Shown here: positions 1 through 7,271 of the stretch, in pieces
How positions within the stretch are numbered: position 1 is the stretch's first letter
Layout: the number at the start of each line of letters is the position of its first letter
Virus record (IMG/VR): IMGVR_UViG_2548876942_000003
Location: 1 to 7,271 of that record
Length of the DNA: 7,271 nucleotides
Strand: one strand, 5' to 3'
Source of the DNA: a virus
Lineage: Duplodnaviria > Heunggongvirae > Uroviricota > Caudoviricetes
Translations under genes and position numbers: made by a program
The notes under the pieces: generated by a model
What the model was told of the DNA's origin: nothing
Seen by the model: only the letters and a program-made list of their open reading frames with translations
Databases searched by the model: none

Positions 1-345
1 ATTTTTCTTTCCAAAATCAGACCCCACATTTAATAAGACAGCATGATTTATTAATTATCTAAAAATCTCTGCAATGATATTGTATTACATAAATCTTCAA
101 ATAACATTAATCATTCTATCTTGAAACTTGTCTTAAACAAGATTACCTCTTTACTCTGCTGAGTCAAACAGCCTAGCCCACTCACTTGTATCACTCATCT
201 TTAACATCGCAGCGTAGTTTCTAACTGGAGCATACCGAATATGACCGCTATTAACATTATGCCGTAACTGCATATTTAGATATTGGATTAGGGGCATCGC
301 GCTGACAGAACTCAAATGCGGGCTCTTTGCCGCCCGCCCCCGCAG

Positions 346-389
346 AATCACGCTATCCGACGCAACCAGCTGCGACGGATAGCGTGATT
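346..389. terminator. Strong stem-loop 5 nt beyond the gene A stop codon; possible terminator or RNA-stabilising hairpin
   Basis: Seen in sequence: perfect 14-bp inverted repeat AATCACGCTATCCG (346-359) / CGGATAGCGTGATT (376-389), with an inner 4-bp stem CGCA/TGCG (361-364/371-374) and 6-nt loop. On the + strand it is followed by TTAATTCATTCTTT (moderately T-rich); on the - strand it is followed by G/C-rich sequence, so a U-tract exists only for rightward transcription. Function is inferred. Confidence 0.4.
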
Positions 390-393
390 TAAT

Positions 394-3006
394 TCATTCT
401 TTAGGGTAGCGACCTTCCGCACCCGCCAGCATTTTTTGATATTCCCCGACCGGATCAAACCGCAGGTGCGTGGCATCAATGCCGTGGTTATCCCGTAAAT
501 GTTCCCATAATTTATTCACCGTCCGTGACTCATTAGGTAATTGACGCGTTATCAACTGGCCGCCAGCACTGGCTTGATAAAATTTCCCGCCAATCTCCAG
601 ACGGCTCCCCATTAACAGCGAAACGGCCTGAATCTCTGAAATCTCAACCAAACACAACGCCGCATCAGCCAGCAGACTGGCAACCGCAGGGGCAAGCGCT
701 GCCCGCCTGGCTTTATCAGCCACCGATCTGGCCTCGGTTTTTTCCACGGCAGAACGCCAGGCAACATCTAATTCGCTCCCTGGTTCATAAGGTGATCCGC
801 TGTGCCGCCTTTTGAATGGTGCTTCACGTAGTCGCCGTATCAATTTGCGCCGCGTTGGCTGGTCCATATTTTCAAAATCGACGATTTCCTCTTCTGATTC
901 TTCTGTAATACCCTCCACACCAGGCGAAAAATCGGTGATTTTTTCGTCTTCCGTAGAGTTATTGACAGAACTCCAAGCGTCGCCGGTTGGCGACGGCAAA
1001 AGGTCAACCCCCAAACCGGGGCCGCTTTTGGCCCCAGTGACGGTTTTGGATTTGGCTCGAATTTTCCACTTAACCAGACGGGTGCAAATACGGGAGGCAT
1101 CCCCCAGACGCGGCGACCAGACCCCGAAAACCTTTTCGGGGATCTCACAATAAGCATTCATTTCATCAGCGGGCTGATAGGCCAGACGTACGACATAGTT
1201 TTCTCGCGGGATCAAAACACCACCCTGGCGGATGATGTAAGTAGCAAAGCATCCGACATCGGCAGCGGCGCAAACCGCATCCATTGCAGGATCCACAAGC
1301 AATGGCGCACCACGTTTGAAGGTACTGTCAATTTTCTGTCGGGTCGTGATCTGATTACTAAGTTTGCGCAGCTCGCGGTAAACCGATATGGGCGGCTGTC
1401 CGATGGGCTGAAACTGGCGGATACGGTGAAGCGATGCCCAGGCCATTGCATATTTGGCGCTTTCATTCAGCGGCTTGCCGCTTTCGTCGTCCAGTTCACC
1501 GGCCAGCGCGTGGCCGTCGATATTCTTCGAAATGTATTTAGCGATGTATGCCGTTGCTGACCCTTTCCGTGGGTCCATTTTTTTTGACTTGAAACGAGCG
1601 CCGGTATTGCGGCCCAGCTCGTCGCGGTCTTCCGCAATGAAGTAGGTGCGAAGGATCGCAACCGTGGCTTTGACTTGCTCTTGTGGCATAAACAGCAACG
1701 CGTGCCAGTGTGGTGTCCCATCGTGATGCGGCTCGGCGACACGGAAGCCATAAGGGCGCAAATCTTCGCGTTTCAGTTTGGCGGTTGCCCGGTTCCACAC
1801 ACGGCATAAATAGCACTGCGCCTGGGCGACGGTGGAATGATTCCATTTGGCGTTATGGTGGCCGGATGCAATATTACTGTGATATTTCGACGGGCAAGTG
1901 ATTGTCAGGAAGATGCCAACATCGCCGCGACTTTGGGCAACAAGCTCAACCCCAGCCATTCGGGCCATAAGCTCATGGCGACGAATAGCCGGGTTTGACG
2001 TGGATTTATTAATCATGTCCTCAAGTGAGGAAACGTTGCCGTCTTCGTCTACCAGTTCATGACTTTTGAAAAAATCCCGGTTTTTACGGCGCTGTTCCTG
2101 CCACTCGATCAGGCTGGAAGCGCTAACGTATGCGTGCGCTTTTTTATTTACCGCGCCAACGGCTCGCAGCTGGTTTTCGCGCCAGTCACAACGCAGGCGC
2201 CAGATTTTGCGCCCCCACCAGTCAGGCGAAGCCATACGCAAAATGGCCGTACATATCCGATCACGTTCCCACGGCGCATACCATGCAGGCGGCACAATGC
2301 GAAGCGCCAGCATTTCGCGGCCCAGATGACAATAAAGCCAGTCCAGTTCTTCGACGTTCATGTCGGAAACATTCTGTCCCAGGGCTTCGCATTCCGTCCC
2401 CAGCATTTCAGCCATGCGGCTGGCGATCTCATTAGCGGCGCTTAGTGCTTCCCGCTTTGTGAAATCAGCCAGCCGTTGCCAGCGCCCGAACCAGTACGCG
2501 GCCAGTTCGCCGGTGATATCAGGCGAAACACCTTGCCTTGTGCGCACAACATCAAGACGCAGCAATGATTTTTTCACTGTCCCCATAAGAAAATCATTGG
2601 TGTGTCTGGTTTCACGGTTGACCCGTAACCACTCAATTTTTTTACGCCAGACTTCACGAATGAAGAACGGCTCTGATAATAAACGTGCTTCGACACCTTC
2701 TGGCGTATTGGCCCAGGCTGCCGCCGTGGCTTTAGCGGCTTCCATTTCTTGCCGGATTATATTTTGATGGGCGGCCAGTGGCAGGCCGCATGGTTCGTAC
2801 CTGTCCAGCGCCTGGATGAGCGCATCACGGTCACGAACTTCGGCGGGATTGTAACCGGCACGTTTGAAGATGTGATCGATATGTTTTTTTACGGCAGGAT
2901 GATGCGCCACCGCCCCAGCAAGCGGGGCGATTTTTTTCGGTTCATAGATGTACGGGCCAACAGCTGGACGCGGTGCGTTCCAAGGCCATGCGAAAGCGTT
3001 AGTCAT
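394..3006 (-). CDS. A: Phage replication initiation endonuclease gpA (HUH rolling-circle initiator, P2 gene A family)
   Basis: 870-codon ORF with ATG at 3006-3004 and TGA at 396-394. The translation contains a HUH-type metal-binding motif (PHWHALLF, encoded about 1700-1713) and a paired-tyrosine active-site motif (YIAKYISK, encoded about 1534-1548) of the phiX174 gpA / P2 gpA type. Position at the end of the cox-led early operon matches P2 gene order. The ORF is longer than the P2 gpA length I recall (about 760 aa), so the exact start is less certain than the identity. Confidence 0.9.
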   Translation of the reverse strand: MTNAFAWPWNAPRPAVGPYIYEPKKIAPLAGAVAHHPAVKKHIDHIFKRAGYNPAEVRDRDALIQALDRYEPCGLPLAAHQNIIRQEMEAAKATAAAWANTPEGVEARLLSEPFFIREVWRKKIEWLRVNRETRHTNDFLMGTVKKSLLRLDVVRTRQGVSPDITGELAAYWFGRWQRLADFTKREALSAANEIASRMAEMLGTECEALGQNVSDMNVEELDWLYCHLGREMLALRIVPPAWYAPWERDRICTAILRMASPDWWGRKIWRLRCDWRENQLRAVGAVNKKAHAYVSASSLIEWQEQRRKNRDFFKSHELVDEDGNVSSLEDMINKSTSNPAIRRHELMARMAGVELVAQSRGDVGIFLTITCPSKYHSNIASGHHNAKWNHSTVAQAQCYLCRVWNRATAKLKREDLRPYGFRVAEPHHDGTPHWHALLFMPQEQVKATVAILRTYFIAEDRDELGRNTGARFKSKKMDPRKGSATAYIAKYISKNIDGHALAGELDDESGKPLNESAKYAMAWASLHRIRQFQPIGQPPISVYRELRKLSNQITTRQKIDSTFKRGAPLLVDPAMDAVCAAADVGCFATYIIRQGGVLIPRENYVVRLAYQPADEMNAYCEIPEKVFGVWSPRLGDASRICTRLVKWKIRAKSKTVTGAKSGPGLGVDLLPSPTGDAWSSVNNSTEDEKITDFSPGVEGITEESEEEIVDFENMDQPTRRKLIRRLREAPFKRRHSGSPYEPGSELDVAWRSAVEKTEARSVADKARRAALAPAVASLLADAALCLVEISEIQAVSLLMGSRLEIGGKFYQASAGGQLITRQLPNESRTVNKLWEHLRDNHGIDATHLRFDPVGEYQKMLAGAEGRYPKE

Positions 3007-3893
3007 TCACATATGCCCGTAGAAGTCGCAACCTTGAGAATACCGATCACCTCACTGGCGGCCCCTCGGGTAATGGCGTTCGCGCTGACAGAACGGTTAA
3101 CGCTAATTTCCTGGAAGTTGAAAGAGCGATAAATCTCGCAGGTGGCTGGGGTGTCGCTATTGGACAGGATCACCGGCGAACCAGTAAGGCGGTTAATATC
3201 CAGCAGAGCGGCAGCTAACTGGCGATGCTCTTTAATCCCAAACGGGGCGGTGTGGTATTGGGTGAAATTAGCGGTTTCGCTTGTTGGCAGGTATGGCGGA
3301 TCGCAATAGATAACCGCGTCACTACCAATCATGATTTTTAACGTGCTCTGGAAATCGCAGCACACGAAAATAGCTTTCGTGTCGTTAGCTTTTTCAGAGA
3401 ATAAACGGATTTGTTCTTCCGGGAAGTAAAGCGGGGTTTTGTGACGCCCAAAGGGAACGTTATATCCACCCTGTTGGTTGTAGCGTACTACGCCGTTATA
3501 TCCGTGACGGTTCAGGTAAAGAAATTGTGCTGCACGAAGAATCTTGCCCGCGTCCGGCCCATCTTCAAACACACTGCGCAATGACAGTAGGTCACGGGCG
3601 CGGGCGTTGAAATCATCGCGGATCCACTTATAGCCGTCTTTATCGCCGTACACTTTAAACAGTGGGCGAGCAGCGTCGATCACCGCATCAGGCCAGCGGG
3701 TTATCTGGCGATACAGGTTAATTAAATCTGGGTTGATATCACCCAGGATATAACGGCGATATTCAGTATTGAGGAAAACAGAAGCACCGCCGACAAACGG
3801 TTCCACCAGGCAATCGGCTTTCGGCAGAATCGGCAGCAAATCAGGCATAACGCGGCCTTTACCACCGGGCCATTTAACGAGAGATCGAATCAT
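3003..3893 (-). CDS. dam: DNA adenine methyltransferase, Dam family (N6-adenine, likely GATC-specific)
   Basis: 296-aa ORF with ATG at 3893-3891. N-terminal WPGGK motif, SAM-binding EPFVGGASVF (FxGxG) and catalytic DPPY motif (VIYCDPPYLPTS), plus extended similarity to E. coli Dam as recalled from memory. Shine-Dalgarno GGAGAAAG lies upstream. The stop codon overlaps the gene A start (ATGA, 3003-3006), implying translational coupling. GATC specificity is inferred from family membership. Confidence 0.9.
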   Translation of the reverse strand: MIRSLVKWPGGKGRVMPDLLPILPKADCLVEPFVGGASVFLNTEYRRYILGDINPDLINLYRQITRWPDAVIDAARPLFKVYGDKDGYKWIRDDFNARARDLLSLRSVFEDGPDAGKILRAAQFLYLNRHGYNGVVRYNQQGGYNVPFGRHKTPLYFPEEQIRLFSEKANDTKAIFVCCDFQSTLKIMIGSDAVIYCDPPYLPTSETANFTQYHTAPFGIKEHRQLAAALLDINRLTGSPVILSNSDTPATCEIYRSFNFQEISVNRSVSANAITRGAASEVIGILKVATSTGICE

Positions 3894-3963
3894 TTTTACT
3901 TTCTCCAGGGTGCAAGAAGCCCGACGCGTTAGCGCCTGTTTCTTTTTTGTGGGTAGTTAGTTG

Positions 3964-4353
3964 TTAATTTACTGCGTTATCTGGCGCGGGTGGTTTGTCG
4001 CGTATCGCCTGAATTTCGGCGCGTGGTGCGGCGTAGTCCTCAAATTCCCACGGCATTGATGCTGCAAATTCGGAAAGGCGCTTAATGCCCATCAAAAGGC
4101 ACGTTTGCTCCTTTTCGGTTAGATTTTCGTAAGTACAACCCAGCTGTTTGGCGGTCAGCTTCGGCATTCCGGCTATGTATCTGGACGCATCGTTTGCCAG
4201 GATGAAAATCACCTTTTTACAGGCATCATCCAGGCGGTTAAAACGGGTTGCAGTGTCGTTCACGCGTGAGACGTTCAAACTTGCTTGCAGTCGAGCCCGT
4301 TGCTCTAAGAACTGGCGACGGCCTGGCTGTTGTCCTGTCTTATCCATCAACAT
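3964..4353 (-). CDS. Hypothetical early-operon protein (about 129 aa), function unknown
   Basis: ORF in the early-operon orientation. The ORF track begins at a GTG (4359); I prefer the ATG at 4353-4351, which is preceded by GGGGAGGTGG with good spacing. Tightly packed, 15 nt after the stop of the upstream ORF. No motif I can recognise. Confidence 0.55.
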   Translation of the reverse strand: MLMDKTGQQPGRRQFLEQRARLQASLNVSRVNDTATRFNRLDDACKKVIFILANDASRYIAGMPKLTAKQLGCTYENLTEKEQTCLLMGIKRLSEFAASMPWEFEDYAAPRAEIQAIRDKPPAPDNAVN

Positions 4354-4368
4354 AACCACCTCCCCGAA

Positions 4369-4662
4369 CTACGCAAAGATGCCCATTAAGCGGGAAAACC
4401 AGCGGCGCTTATTACGCGGGCGCGACATAAACGGTACACGGCAGTTTTTAACAAATTGAACATCTGCCGCTTTAGGCTGGAAGAACCGCCCGTCCGGGGT
4501 TTCAATCCAGCCGCGTTGATGCTGACGGTGGGTGATCTGCTGGCCGTGGGTGAGCAGGCTGGCGAGTGAAGGGCACTGTGTTAAGTCCATGTTGATCTCC
4601 GTCATATTGAAAAGATGCCGGGATATAACCCCACGCCCGGCACGTGTTTCCTGTGATAACAT
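4369..4662 (-). CDS. Hypothetical small early-operon protein (97 aa from ATG 4662; alternatively 73 aa from ATG 4590)
   Basis: ORF in the early-operon orientation. The ATG at 4662 has only a weak AGG upstream; the internal in-frame ATG at 4590-4588 is preceded by GGAG with a 6-nt spacer and may be the true start. Basic, Arg-rich C-terminus (RPRNKRRWFSR). No recognisable domain. Confidence 0.45.
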   Translation of the reverse strand: MLSQETRAGRGVISRHLFNMTEINMDLTQCPSLASLLTHGQQITHRQHQRGWIETPDGRFFQPKAADVQFVKNCRVPFMSRPRNKRRWFSRLMGIFA

Positions 4663-4728
4663 CGCTATGCCTGTGTAACTTTGAGCAGTGAATCAGGCAT
4701 AACAATCACCAACACAGAAGGAGTTGTA

Positions 4729-5208
4729 ATGAAATTCAATGTGTTTTTTAAAAAAGACCACGGATCACACTGGGTACTTTCCGATGGTTCCCCCCTCTTT
4801 GAAAGTCCACTATTTGAAACAAGACCTAAAGCCATTGATGACCTTGAGAACTTTGTAGGCCTTATGGAATCGCCAATTTTTATTAAGGCTGGTGACGATA
4901 TTAATTCTGGCGATACAGAAAACTGTCCATCTGTAGTTATTTCTTTAAAACAGCATGAATCGCTATGGGGCTGGGAGTTATTTATCTCAAAAAATGGACA
5001 ACTGTCTAAAGTTACCGAAAGTTCAGGTAATGGCTTTGACTCATTAGAATTAGCAAAGCAAAGTGCCCAGTTTTTTATTAATGCCATTATCGACGCTCCT
5101 ATTCTGGATCAAGCCGATGTCGCTATCCCCGGTATGCACTTCTCAAAATCTTTCGAGGAAACGCACCACATTGGTGACATTCACCCATCCAGTAAATGGT
5201 TCAAATAA
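4729..5208 (+). CDS. Moron-like protein with tandem YegP/DUF1508-like repeats (159 aa), encoded antisense to the early operon
   Basis: The track ORF 4681-5208 starts at TTG; the in-frame ATG at 4729 is preceded by a strong Shine-Dalgarno (GAAGGAG, 6-nt spacer). The region is visibly AT-rich (about 37-40% G+C by hand count of a sample) versus more than 50% in A and dam. The translation shows two repeats whose hydrophobic pattern resembles the YegP/DUF1508 repeat as I recall it (KFNVFFKKDHGSHWVLSDGSPLFESP...AIDDLENFV and WGWELFISKNGQLSKVTESSGNGFDSLELAKQSAQFFINAI). The family assignment is from memory, not a search. Confidence 0.55.
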   Translation: MKFNVFFKKDHGSHWVLSDGSPLFESPLFETRPKAIDDLENFVGLMESPIFIKAGDDINSGDTENCPSVVISLKQHESLWGWELFISKNGQLSKVTESSGNGFDSLELAKQSAQFFINAIIDAPILDQADVAIPGMHFSKSFEETHHIGDIHPSSKWFK

Positions 5209-5212
5209 TCCA

Positions 5213-5560
5213 TCACTGCGGCGTTATCGTTTTTCTTGTGCGAGGTGGAACATCTCGCACGGTTTCTTCATCAACCATCAACTCATAAATTCTGATGCTG
5301 TTATCACCGTTTGATACGTCATCAAATACCTGAAAAAGAAAACTCATGAACTGCTCATAAGTGACGCTAGGTTCAACATACCCACCAGTAACCTCAATTA
5401 ACGGTGTTAGCCCTGAATTATCTGCTAAAGAAACGCAGTCCAACTTATCCAAACGGAAAAAGTAATTACCGCAAGGCGTTCTTTTGTCCTTAATCCGTAT
5501 AAATACATTTGATAACGCTGTATGACTATCTGAGAGCTTAAAGATTTTTGCCGTGTCCAT
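5213..5560 (-). CDS. Hypothetical AT-rich early protein (115 aa) immediately downstream of cox
   Basis: ORF with ATG at 5560-5558, 22 nt after the cox stop codon, same strand as the early operon. AT-rich like the neighbouring plus-strand gene. No recognisable domain, signal peptide or transmembrane segment in the translation. Its stop (5213-5215) lies 4 bp from the stop of the convergent plus-strand gene. Confidence 0.5.
   Translation of the reverse strand: MDTAKIFKLSDSHTALSNVFIRIKDKRTPCGNYFFRLDKLDCVSLADNSGLTPLIEVTGGYVEPSVTYEQFMSFLFQVFDDVSNGDNSIRIYELMVDEETVRDVPPRTRKTITPQ
5238..5268 (+). terminator. Candidate intrinsic terminator for the plus-strand moron gene
   Basis: 7-bp GC-rich inverted repeat GTGCGAG (5238-5244) / CTCGCAC (5254-5260) with a 9-nt loop, followed by GGTTTCTT. 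It begins 30 nt after the TAA of the 4729-5208 gene. A T-tract is present only on the + strand. Short stem and interrupted T-run, so weak. Confidence 0.3.
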
Positions 5561-5582
5561 TTTATTCAGCCCTGTAAGTTGC

Positions 5583-5858
5583 TTATGATGGATTGCCCAG
5601 ACCCAACCACATTAACCACCCTTCCCTAATTTCCTTGGGACGACTCTCATACGCCATTTTCATTCCGTTGTTCCAGGCTGGGAGGTAGACCCAGTACTCA
5701 CCTGCCCGCCCTGAAGTTGATTGCGGATCAGTCATCTCAACTACGGGTAGCTTTCCTTTTTCAATCATTCCCCTTACTGCTGCCGGTGTTTTGCCGATCA
5801 GTTTTGCAAACTCCTGGTACGGGACAGCATCACTAATACTGACAACTTGTTTGCTCAT
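5583..5858 (-). CDS. cox: Cox-type excisionase / lytic-switch repressor of Pc (P2 Cox family)
   Basis: 91-aa ORF, the same length as P2 Cox, with close similarity to the P2 Cox sequence as recalled (PYQEFAKLIGK...GKLPV..MTDPQS.SGRAGEYWVYLPAWNNG...YESRPKEIR.GWLMWLGLG). Shine-Dalgarno GAGGT lies 7 nt upstream of the ATG at 5858. Divergent from the C repressor gene, as in P2. Confidence 0.9.
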   Translation of the reverse strand: MSKQVVSISDAVPYQEFAKLIGKTPAAVRGMIEKGKLPVVEMTDPQSTSGRAGEYWVYLPAWNNGMKMAYESRPKEIREGWLMWLGLGNPS

Positions 5859-5981
5859 CTGCTAACCTCGTATCTAGATCTAACCAATGGGTTTCAAAGT
5901 TCTTTAATGGGCTTTGATGCACATTGACAACATCTAAAACCACATTAGAGAGTTTCGATAATATTAGAGGATCTTGATAAC
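5859..5981. promoter_or_regulatory. cox-C divergent intergenic switch region (Pe/Pc, operator region)
   Basis: 123-bp spacer between the divergent cox and C start codons. Besides the Pe elements it contains a plus-strand perfect TTGACA (5924-5929), a plus-strand TTTAAT (5903-5908) that could serve as the Pc -10 in a face-to-face arrangement, overlapping palindromes ATCTAGAT / TAGATCTA (5873-5883) that include a GATC, and one Cox-box-like TTAAAG on the minus strand (about 5902-5907). Pc cannot be placed uniquely from sequence alone. Confidence 0.6.
5944..5969. promoter_or_regulatory. Direct repeats ATTAGAG flanking the Pe -10 region; candidate C-repressor operator half-sites
   Basis: ATTAGAG occurs at 5944-5950 and 5963-5969 (extended ATTAGAGAG / ATTAGAGGA), 19 bp apart. 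One copy overlaps the candidate Pe -10 and the other lies just downstream of the predicted start. P2 C is known to bind direct repeats flanking the Pe -10; the assignment here is by analogy. Confidence 0.4.
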
Positions 5982-5988
5982 ATGTCAA
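5954..5988 (-). promoter_or_regulatory. Candidate early promoter Pe (sigma70-type) driving cox and the early operon
   Basis: Seen in sequence on the minus strand: perfect -35 TTGACA (plus-strand TGTCAA, 5983-5988, overlapping the first codons of C), a 16-bp spacer, and -10 TAATAT (plus-strand ATATTA, 5961-5966). Predicted start is near 5954, giving a leader of about 95 nt to the cox ATG. A GATC (5970-5973) sits in the spacer. Assignment as Pe is by analogy to the P2 switch. Confidence 0.5.
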
Positions 5989-6281
5989 CGCCCATAAGCG
6001 AAAAACTAGCGTTAGTTCGTGAGTCTGAGCGACTAAACCGGAAGCAATTCGCTGAAATAACAGGAGTTCCTTACAGTTCTCTAACTTATTATGAGAGCGG
6101 AAGAACTACGCCCCCCACTGACGTAACAATGAAAATTCTCCAGCACCCCAGATTTAGCAAATACACGTTGTGGTTTATGACCGATCAGGTTGCTCCCGAA
6201 GCCGGTCAGATAGCACCGGCCCTCGCACACTTTGGGCAAGATGTAACAACATCGCAGCACTCAGACCAAAAGATTGGTTAA
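5982..6281 (+). CDS. C: Immunity repressor C (P2 C family, 99 aa)
   Basis: 99-aa ORF, the same length as P2 C, with strong similarity to P2 C as recalled (ISEK..L.R.SE.L.R.Q.A..TGVPY..L.YYESGR.TPPTDV.M.ILQ.P.F.KYTLWFMT.Q.APE.GQIAPALAHFGQ). Shine-Dalgarno AGAGGA upstream. Divergent from cox and followed by int, as in P2. Confidence 0.9.
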   Translation: MSTPISEKLALVRESERLNRKQFAEITGVPYSSLTYYESGRTTPPTDVTMKILQHPRFSKYTLWFMTDQVAPEAGQIAPALAHFGQDVTTSQHSDQKIG

Positions 6282-6318
6282 CCATTCACCAGGCGCATCT
6301 TTATTACAAAATTTGTTT

Positions 6319-6350
6319 ACTTGTTGCCAAATACAACAAGCACAACAAGT
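6319..6350 (+). repeat. Inverted plus direct repeats in the C-int spacer (possible attenuator or protein-binding site)
   Basis: ACTTGTTG (6319-6326) is the reverse complement of CAACAAGT (6343-6350), an 8-bp stem with a 16-nt loop. ACAACAAG is directly repeated at 6333-6340 and 6342-6349. Followed by a short TTTGTG. Lies in the 145-bp A/C-rich spacer between C and int. Confidence 0.3.
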
Positions 6351-6426
6351 TTGTGAAATCTAAGCGCAAGGGAAAATTAACAGCAGCAAAGAAAACACAA
6401 CCTAGCACCATTCATTTGGGGGTCTT

Positions 6427-7233
6427 ATGACAATTAAGAAACTCGATGATGGTCGTTATGAAGTGGACATCAGACCTGCAGGGCGCAACGGAAAGCGCAT
6501 CCGCAGGAAATTTGACAAGAAAAGTGAGGCTGTAGCTTTTGAGAAACACACTCAATACAACCATCACGATAAAGAATGGTTGGCTAAACCGACAGATAAG
6601 CGGCATCTGTCTGAATTAACGAAAGTCTGGTGGGATCTGAAAGGCAAGCATGAAGAACACGGAAAATCTAATTTGGGTAAGATTGAAATCTTTACCCGGA
6701 TCACTGATGACCCTTGCGCGTTCCAGATAACCAAAGCGCTTATTAGCCAGTACAGCATGACTCGCAGAGGGCAAGGCATAAAACCGGCCAGTATTAACCG
6801 CGATCTTACCTGCCTGAGTGGTATGTTTACTGCGCTAATTGATGCGGAATTGTTCTTTGGTGAACATCCTTTCAGAGGGATGAAAAAGCTCAAGGAGCAG
6901 AAACCAGAAACCGGCTATCTGACGCAGGAAGAAATAACATTGTTGCTTGCCAATCTTGACGGGGACAACAAGAAAATCGCGATTCTCTGTTTAAGTACCG
7001 GCGCTCGATGGGGTGAGGCCGCGAAACTGAAAGCTGAGAACGTAATACAGAATCGGGTGACGTTCGTTAAAACAAAGACGAACAAACCGCGTACTGTCCC
7101 TATCTCTGAGGAAGTGGCTGTAATGATTGCGGGTAAAGGTTATCTGTTCCCTGATGCCTCATACCCGAAGTTCAGGCGAACAATGAAAGATGTAAAACCA
7201 GATCTACCGGACGGGCGTAAGCGTACAGCCTGA
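6427..7233 (+). CDS. int: P2-type tyrosine integrase, N-terminal 268 codons only; the C-terminal catalytic region (HxLRH box and active-site Tyr) is not encoded before the in-frame stop, so likely truncated or disrupted
   Basis: ATG at 6427. The translation matches the P2 Int N-terminal and core-binding region as recalled (MTIKKLDDGRYEVDIRPAGRNGKRIRRKFDKKSEAVAFEK ... LSTGARWGEAAKLKAEN ... VTFVKTKTNKPRTVPIS) up to ...KPDLP (about 7213). It then diverges and hits TGA at 7231-7233. P2 Int is 337 aa, and none of the three forward frames after 7210 encodes an HxLRH-like motif. Confidence 0.75.
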   Translation: MTIKKLDDGRYEVDIRPAGRNGKRIRRKFDKKSEAVAFEKHTQYNHHDKEWLAKPTDKRHLSELTKVWWDLKGKHEEHGKSNLGKIEIFTRITDDPCAFQITKALISQYSMTRRGQGIKPASINRDLTCLSGMFTALIDAELFFGEHPFRGMKKLKEQKPETGYLTQEEITLLLANLDGDNKKIAILCLSTGARWGEAAKLKAENVIQNRVTFVKTKTNKPRTVPISEEVAVMIAGKGYLFPDASYPKFRRTMKDVKPDLPDGRKRTA

Positions 7234-7271
7234 ACCGTCTGGTCAGAATCTGACGAATTAGACAAAGTGGT

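Follow-up and report, generated by a model that had tools for sequence, protein, structure and literature searches.

A conserved two-hairpin module 3′ of gene A lies at the edge of the variable cargo slot of an Irrigatiovirus-like P2-family prophage

What lies immediately beyond the replication gene A of a P2-family phage, and on which strand should that DNA be read? The question is raised by a stretch of 7,271 nucleotides (nt) from the IMG/VR virus record IMGVR_UViG_2548876942_000003 (positions 1 to 7,271; the window). A preliminary description made from the letters alone had taken its first 393 positions as a mostly non-coding, AT-rich flank at the edge of the variable locus that follows A, where a strong hairpin would terminate transcription arriving from the left. 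Our analysis indicates that positions 1-393 are likely to be the gene-A edge of the gpA-gpQ cargo hotspot in an Irrigatiovirus-like P2-family prophage, to be read on the minus strand, in which two hairpins (HP1 and HP2) would form the 3′ untranslated region (3′UTR) and terminator of A, and an imported cassette and a fossil of a foreign gene A would lie beyond them. The preliminary description was a correct pointer to a known hotspot and placed the hairpin mechanism on the wrong strand.

Gene A encodes a replication endonuclease of 870 amino acids (aa) and occupies 394..3006 on the minus strand, as given by the list of open reading frames (ORFs), a Pfam match to Phage_GPA (PF05840, E 3.2e-107) and the RefSeq label 'replication endonuclease'. 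Its last codons are ...AAA GAA TGA, with the stop codon at 396..394. Directly 3′ of this stop we found a conserved module of 80 nt (314..393, minus) composed of HP1, a linker and HP2; homology to Salmonella phage SI7 begins at 314, and the window scored 98.4 bits against a covariance model of the module. HP1 (346..389, minus) has a stem of 19 bp, interrupted by a single U·U mismatch and capped by the 6-nt loop GCUGGU. The underlying inverted repeat (346-364/371-389) has 19-nt arms with a single mismatch and folds at about -31 kcal/mol on both strands (z = -7 to -8), a stability reached by none of 200 shuffles. The hairpin noticed earlier was thus real, but it ends 4 nt, and not 5 nt, from the A stop. 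HP1 is not followed by a U-tract on the A-sense strand. The minus strand had been considered tail-less; its U-rich tail belongs to HP2, which had been overlooked. In HP2 (317..338, minus), GCGGGC pairs with GCCCGC around an 8-nt loop, GGCAAAGA, and the U-rich AUUUGAGUUCU follows at 316..306. A terminator scan of positions 1-600 reported this hairpin (337..318, then AUUUGAGUUC) on the minus strand as the sole terminator-like site, giving GCGGGCGGCAAAGAGCCCGC + ATTTGAGTTC, a GC-rich stem-loop with an immediate U-rich tract. Many relatives carry GUUUUU or GCCCGCGUUUUU, with a run of five U, after HP2.

To follow the module across relatives, we collected 44 loci encoding relatives of the A C-terminus and extracted the DNA 3′ of each A stop. 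The module followed the stop in 27 sequences (26 distinct), which spanned 67-100% A identity, and similarity collapsed directly after HP2. Over the 26 distinct sequences, 91.6% of cells were standard pairs and 13 of the 26 pairs had changed on both sides. None of 500 shuffles reached any of five covariation measures, and slid 3′ partners paired at only 30-44%. Helix 1 (HP1) was 92.7% paired, with 10 of its 19 pairs changed on both sides, and helix 2 (HP2) was 88.6% paired, with three compensatory pairs. Within HP1, the base and the apical part were conserved while the mid-stem covaried, the apical CGCA-ACUGGU-UGCG being nearly invariant. The covariance model gave one match per locus, always just 3′ of A (314-393 in the window), and none in P2 or other P2-like lineages; an Rfam 15 covariance-model search of window positions 1-600 on both strands returned no match at E up to 1. 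The module is a clean RNA motif, backed by covariation and absent from Rfam.

The same alignment decisively distinguished the two strands. G·U wobble cells numbered 81 on the A-sense strand versus 9 on the opposite strand; the G·U pairs recurred at 16 pair positions, and the 9 A·C cells were singletons from four degenerate outliers. Paired cells amounted to 91.6% on the A-sense strand versus 80.9% in the plus-strand version, and the mean HP1 energy was -28.5 kcal/mol in the A-sense versus -21.0 kcal/mol in the antisense direction, the A-sense form being the more stable in 22 of 26 sequences; the sequences compared are related, and P values for this comparison are only indicative. Because of the covariation and the strong excess of G·U pairs on one strand, the two-hairpin structure, as judged from its substitution pattern, belongs to the A transcript. 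Its role is most likely that of a 3′ stabiliser and terminator of this transcript, in which HP2 would be the intrinsic terminator of the A operon and HP1 a 3′ stabilising or processing element, the latter being the weakest step of the proposal.

The module was absent from L022, L032, L033, L003, L004 and L039, in which the last ~10 codons of A were also replaced. In these loci (and in L037, grouped with L004) the match to the window A ended at residue 289/299 and was followed by 1-9 unrelated codons and then by AT-rich cargo. Cassette exchange can thus replace the last codons of an essential replication gene, and the 3′ end of A is itself a recombination zone. A different layout was observed in L035 (~6950-6972) and just after the A stop of L005/L040, where a symmetric U-run, GC stem and A-run stands at the point where antisense cargo or ogr abuts. 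This element looks like a bidirectional terminator, unlike the one-sided layout of the window.

On the other side of HP2, the window departs from the phage backbone. The preliminary description had stated that all plus-strand frames entering from the left close by position 62, which held (stops at 31-33, 44-46 and 60-62), and that no convincing ORF occupies 63-393. No plus-strand ORF of at least 30 aa was indeed present in 1-393, but the minus strand holds an ORF at 151-351 (66 aa from GTG, or 48 aa from ATG 297) whose nature had been missed. This ORF matched, by tblastn, the A genes of three P2-like loci (L051-L053) and an A remnant in L054, an island, with 37 aligned residues 59-68% identical (E 5e-13 to 6e-12); by blastn, its region was 74-77% identical to the same A genes and remnant over 87-111 nt; and by blastp, it matched residues 796-834 of the 837-residue A of L052 (E 2.6e-14). 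Its alignment to the C-terminus of the window's own A was weak (E 4e-4). The DNA alignment with L051-L053, hereafter the donors, extends past the stop codon and the Shine-Dalgarno (SD) sequence into the first two codons of the next gene, to about window position 135. These matches make 135..276 (minus) a fossil left by the 3′ end of another P2-like gene A: its last ~40 codons and stop TAA (153..151) are followed by an SD-like AGAGG and then by TTG TTT (140..135), the two codons that open the next gene of the donor. Accordingly, 'mostly non-coding' holds in that no intact gene fills 30-393, but about 140 nt of it are a gene fossil. The stretch between module and recognisable fossil (277..313, minus) aligned poorly to donor A genes and may be a more decayed portion of the fossil; neither it nor the leader at 15-134 had detectable relatives outside identical prophages. 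A tblastn search of the phage collection with the fossil peptide gave no match.

In the donors, A is also followed closely by homologs (56-58% identity) of the window's cargo gene, placed behind a 182-aa Cys-rich gene, and more distant homologs (33-36% identity) lie about 140 nt after A in Klebsiella and Serratia P2-like phages. Because the fossil matches the donor A ends and the donors carry cargo homologs 3′ of A, we infer that the cassette came from another P2-like phage with the tail of its A gene attached and was inserted past the predicted terminator of the resident A. P2 defence loci have been reported to contain small intergenic core-gene fossils as traces of intense recombination (bioRxiv 10.64898/2026.02.27.708500); the present fossil is a concrete trace of cassette movement and agrees with the claim that intense local recombination leaves core-gene remnants.

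Three further observations concern this junction. A Cys-rich protein of 181-183 aa (CRKCG...CNKCKG) is encoded in L051 (4365-4916), L052/L053 (4443-4991) and L054 (3410-3955, an AlpA island), where its gene comes after A or the A remnant and before the cargo homolog; the protein had no Pfam or PADLOC match, the spacing of its gene from A and the cargo homolog in the donors resembles that of an operon, and it may act together with the large membrane protein. Of this gene, the window retains only the ribosome-binding site and first two codons, and ORF 151-351 is unrelated to it. Homology of leader positions 30-134 to the 3′ end of the 182-aa gene was suggested by MAFFT and was not significant by blastx or blastn, and we make no claim of it. 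Finally, the minus strand has a small AT-rich palindrome, CTTGT-TTAAG-ACAAG (127-141), directly beyond the stop codon of the fossil. It covers the remnant of the start of the next donor gene and may form a weak hairpin or serve as an operator.

The cargo had been expected to lie to the left of the window. A single AT-rich gene of 925 codons is indeed found there, but its start, also overlooked, lies inside the window. Its first codons occupy 1..14 on the minus strand (RefSeq coding sequence WP_249940998.1 at L001 12237-15014, translation and homolog N-termini), and beyond the window the gene, which shares its strand with A and has 30.8% GC, reads leftwards for about 2.8 kb. The start TTG 14..12 is favoured over an in-frame ATG at 29..27 (930 aa) because of the homolog N-termini and a conserved TTG start with SD. 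Upstream, the leader (15..134, minus) is AT-rich, with about 23% GC, carries an SD-like GGGG (25..22) and presumably holds the cargo's own promoter. A relaxed promoter scan found only matches of 8-9 out of 12, such as TTGTTT 140..135 / TAGAAT 118..113 and ATGTTA 107..102 / TACAAT 84..79, which are weak sigma-70 candidates; a strict scan found none, versus 1.7 expected by chance.

The cargo family comprised 53 clusters at 90% identity in Enterobacterales, all annotated 'hypothetical' and none with a Pfam domain, the window's own cluster having 1192 member sequences. Members occur in P2-like hotspots, directly 3′ of Phage_GPA (33-58% identity), and in small islands. Matches to PHROGs were only to those of unknown function, and tblastn of the protein against the phage collection gave no match. 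An AlphaFold model (mean predicted local distance difference test score 85.3) opened with a long helical stretch at the N-terminus (about residues 14-211), read here as a membrane anchor. This was followed by a small α/β domain and then by a long helical-repeat region, and a β-rich domain closed the C-terminal end. From its location and composition, a role in defence or exclusion is plausible but unproven. That the protein is an undescribed single-gene anti-phage or superinfection-exclusion system, with HP1 acting in addition as a sequence-specifically recognised RNA element that tunes A expression, is a tentative proposal that we would hold at less than even odds. Taken together with some 300 bp of its native upstream DNA, the gene offers an abundant, completely unannotated candidate for phage-defence screens.

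The slot into which this cassette falls was variable in the relatives, in agreement with the claim that the window reaches the edge of the variable locus following A. In 36 related loci, the interval from the A stop to the ogr stop (or the portal) ranged from 46 bp to 3.4 kb (46, 127, ~325, ~375, ~965, ~1100, ~1560, 1784-2561, 3265 and 3423 bp). More than 12 cargo types, with ORFs in either orientation, occupied it while portal identity was 87-99% in most loci, and most large inserts had 32-36% GC. The slot is flanked by gene A on one side and the portal gene Q on the other, with an ogr-like gene intervening, and the order portal, ogr, cargo, A was found in L001 and more than 30 related loci. 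Cargo of the relatives included recognised defence genes, among them PDC-S20/KAP NTPase, NsnA/PD-T4-2-like GmrSD_N + RiboL-PSP HEPN pairs and PDC-S06 (AAA_13). The slot of relatives also held an Apea-like HEPN protein, a PemK-like toxin, an endonuclease/exonuclease/phosphatase protein, a type II methyltransferase or DNA methylases, proteins of unknown function, or nothing; in the 'empty' relatives the whole A-ogr interval consisted of the module and the ogr terminator. The slot is the published gpA-gpQ hotspot of P2-like phages (PMC9122126), of which the window is an ordinary example with an uncharacterised cargo. On the A side the backbone ends at the foot of HP2 (window about 314-317) and on the other side at the conserved ogr terminator, which places the backbone/cargo boundary with a precision of a few bases, where a conserved predicted terminator ends. 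What is new here is modest: this precise junction, the 80-nt motif, the gene-A fossil recording the origin of the cassette and the unannotated, fairly abundant cargo. The locus adds an instance from a little-studied Irrigatiovirus-like lineage to the catalogue of P2-family defence hotspots.

These elements can be arranged in a single scheme. A transcript leaving gene A would first form HP1 (389..346), a long stem without a U-tract that would probably serve as a barrier to 3′ exonucleases or as a processing site, and HP2 (337..318) with its U-rich tail would then end the early/replication transcript and insulate the content of the hotspot. The phage backbone would stop at the HP2 foot (~314-317), and everything to the left would be imported cassette, beginning with the fossil (about 276..135) of another P2-like A end, its stop and the next ribosome-binding site, continuing with the 23%-GC leader and reaching, at TTG 14..12, the 31%-GC membrane-protein gene, which would be transcribed leftwards. 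The donor of the cassette would be a P2-like phage with the cargo family directly 3′ of A.

Other explanations of the hairpins were weighed against this scheme. As proposed in the preliminary description, HP1 could be an intrinsic terminator for plus-strand transcription that comes from the left-hand cargo and converges on A, as old-tin does in P2 itself. The window stem contains no wobble pairs, is equally stable on the plus strand (-31.1 kcal/mol) and is followed there by T-rich TAATTCATTCTTT, and several relatives have antisense cargo ending about 90 nt from the A stop. However, the adjacent cargo gene is on the minus strand, reads away from A and starts, rather than ends, at this place, and the closest plus-strand gene is ogr, 3.4 kb away and with its own terminator. 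The relatives maintain the stem on the A-sense strand only, their plus-strand HP1 having up to 10 mismatches and being on average 7.5 kcal/mol weaker. The T-rich tail, TAATTCATTCTTTAGGG, is present as described, but it is mostly the reverse complement of the last A codons and stop, and is thus conserved as coding sequence; and the scan, which may not tolerate the internal mismatch of the stem, reported no plus-strand terminator at HP1. Termination of converging transcription by HP1 is consequently very unlikely. It is even less credible that ORF 151-351 is a real small gene accompanying the cargo, and we regard this as the most doubtful reading of the locus. The frame is open up to a stop homologous to the donor A stop, and a 93-aa ORF of the same origin has been called upstream of a Citrobacter cargo homolog. 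Yet its first 18 codons would overlap the conserved hairpins, no SD precedes ATG 297, 273 or 207, it matches only the extreme C-terminus of A proteins of 820-870 aa, and it has no Pfam, PHROG or PADLOC match and is unannotated in RefSeq. A function as partner gene of the cargo, prompted by the similarity to the Citrobacter ORF, was discarded, both ORFs being fossils of gene-A C-termini.

The module might instead act as DNA: it could be a cos/packaging site, the A protein could use it as a single-strand hairpin in rolling-circle replication, or recombination there could direct the insertion of cargo. In P2 and P4 the hotspot reportedly adjoins cos, the GC-rich linker and HP2 loosely resemble the GC-rich P2 cos region, 'empty' loci hold little beyond the module and the ogr terminator, cargo junctions fall exactly at the module edge, and the wobble asymmetry, as G·T, would also fit a hairpin in one DNA strand. 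Against this, a search of the 30-kb locus L001 with the P2 cos, which may not be that of this lineage, gave no site at up to 3 mismatches. L022, L032 and L033, compared by portal alone, are 93-97% identical in that gene and yet lack the module throughout their 12-kb loci, which shows it to be dispensable for packaging with a nearly identical portal; we accordingly rejected the GC-rich module as a likely cos. In addition, the P2 ori lies inside gene A and not after it, and covariation with freely changing stem sequence disfavours a double-stranded protein-binding palindrome. A role as DNA is thus improbable. Somewhat better placed, though still unlikely, is a regulatory 3′UTR element, which could adjust the amount of the cis-acting A protein through cleavage by RNase III or give rise to a ~80-nt 3′UTR-derived small RNA (sRNA) ending at HP2. 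The 19-bp stem of HP1 is within the size range of RNase III substrates, and its apical loop and closing pairs are near-invariant around a covarying middle. Hfq-type sRNAs typically consist of a hairpin, a linker and a terminator hairpin with a U tail, a layout that the module shares, and the module has been retained across the whole range of A identity in which it was found. On the other hand, it matches no Rfam family, and the close relatives L022, L032 and L033 manage without it.

The reading of HP1-HP2 as 3′UTR and terminator of A, with an imported defence-type cassette beyond, has points against it as well. Termination at HP2 is inferred from sequence, and the window's U-tract AUUUGAGUUCU is interrupted and weaker than in relatives, so that some read-through into the cargo is possible. 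The minimum-energy fold shows a window-specific alternative pairing of the G-run with GCCCC (295..291). The near-invariant apical sequence of HP1 suggests sequence-specific recognition, which a simple exonuclease barrier would not need. No leader promoter with 9 out of 12 consensus matches and normal spacing was found, and with such weak candidates the cargo could be expressed by read-through; L051-L053 pack A, the 182-aa gene and the cargo like one operon, and lytic co-expression fits this as well as lysogenic defence does. Finally, the search for defence systems in the left-hand cargo, recommended earlier, gave no PADLOC match for the 925-aa protein, which also lacked Pfam, NCBIfam, PDB-sequence and informative fold matches.

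The rest of the 7.3-kb window is the early/replication arm of the prophage, with Dam methylase, a Fil homolog, cox, repressor and integrase to the right of A. The nearest sequenced phages were the Salmonella phages SI7, SW3 and SW5 (Peduoviridae, Irrigatiovirus), with 94% identity across window positions 314-4575. Positions 1-393 were present at an identity of at least 99.5% in 19 of 5426 complete E. coli genomes, single copy and chromosomal in each; the same cargo occurred in all 19 E. coli genomes with the window's A allele, which left no within-species variation to compare. In E. coli JB2 the prophage adjoins yegR, and the order is terminase, portal and ogr-like gene (all plus), followed by the 925-aa hypothetical gene and gene A (both minus). 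The GC content was 25.3% in 1-150, which bears out the AT-richness noted earlier, 43.6% in 151-313, 58.8% in 314-393 and 53.7% in gene A. A literature search by accession returned no match. Between fil and cox (~4600-5580) lies a second AT-rich block (GC 0.37-0.45) with convergent ORFs at 4729-5208 (plus, 159 aa) and 5213-5560 (minus, 115 aa), without Pfam or PADLOC match; homology to SI7 ends at 4575, and the block looks like a second, smaller variable slot of the early region. At the far end, the final 55 bases (7217-7271) are identical to an insertion sequence (IS) annotated as ISEc8 in Stx phages, and the integrase ORF (6427-7233) is shortened to 268 aa, versus 335 aa in JB2. The int/IS junction was absent from all complete E. 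coli genomes of the collection; either an IS insertion has probably immobilised the source prophage, or an IS forms the end of the contig.

Compared with known intrinsic (Rho-independent) terminators, including tandem hairpins, HP2 is similar in having a GC stem of 6-7 bp that closes a loop of 8 nt and, in the sense of the upstream gene, leads into a U-rich tail, and HP1, immediately upstream, resembles 3′ stabilising stem-loops. Unlike them, the 19-bp HP1 stem is unusually long, with a near-invariant apex and no U-tract, and the U-tract of the window is interrupted. To our knowledge, no antitermination system has been described for the P2-family early operon. As a lead only, the long-stem terminators described as resisting processive antitermination (PMC10325885) have a very long stem at the end of a mobile-element operon, upstream of genes needing insulation, as here, but with the U-tract directly following the long stem. 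In P2 (NC_001895), the orf91/tin junction corresponds to this place, being where the A transcription unit ends and the cargo begins. There, the A stop is overlapped by orf91, which lies 38 nt from the convergent tin, and the HP1-HP2 model finds nothing; old-tin are transcribed from near cos towards A/orf91, and convergence holds in P2 and not in the window. With respect to the P2-like gpA-gpQ (old/tin) hotspot (Rousset et al. 2022, PMC9122126; Moura de Sousa et al. 2026 preprint), the locus differs in having an ogr/Delta-like gene between cargo and portal, in belonging to a 30-kb Irrigatiovirus-like phage and not a Peduovirus, in a cargo that is co-directional with A, whereas P2 old-tin are convergent, in that a search with the P2 cos found no such site next to it, and in a cargo family without known defence annotation. 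It is like that hotspot in its slot between A and portal, hypervariable among near-identical phages, in relatives that carry known defence systems, in its AT-rich cargo and in the small core-gene fossils left by recombination.
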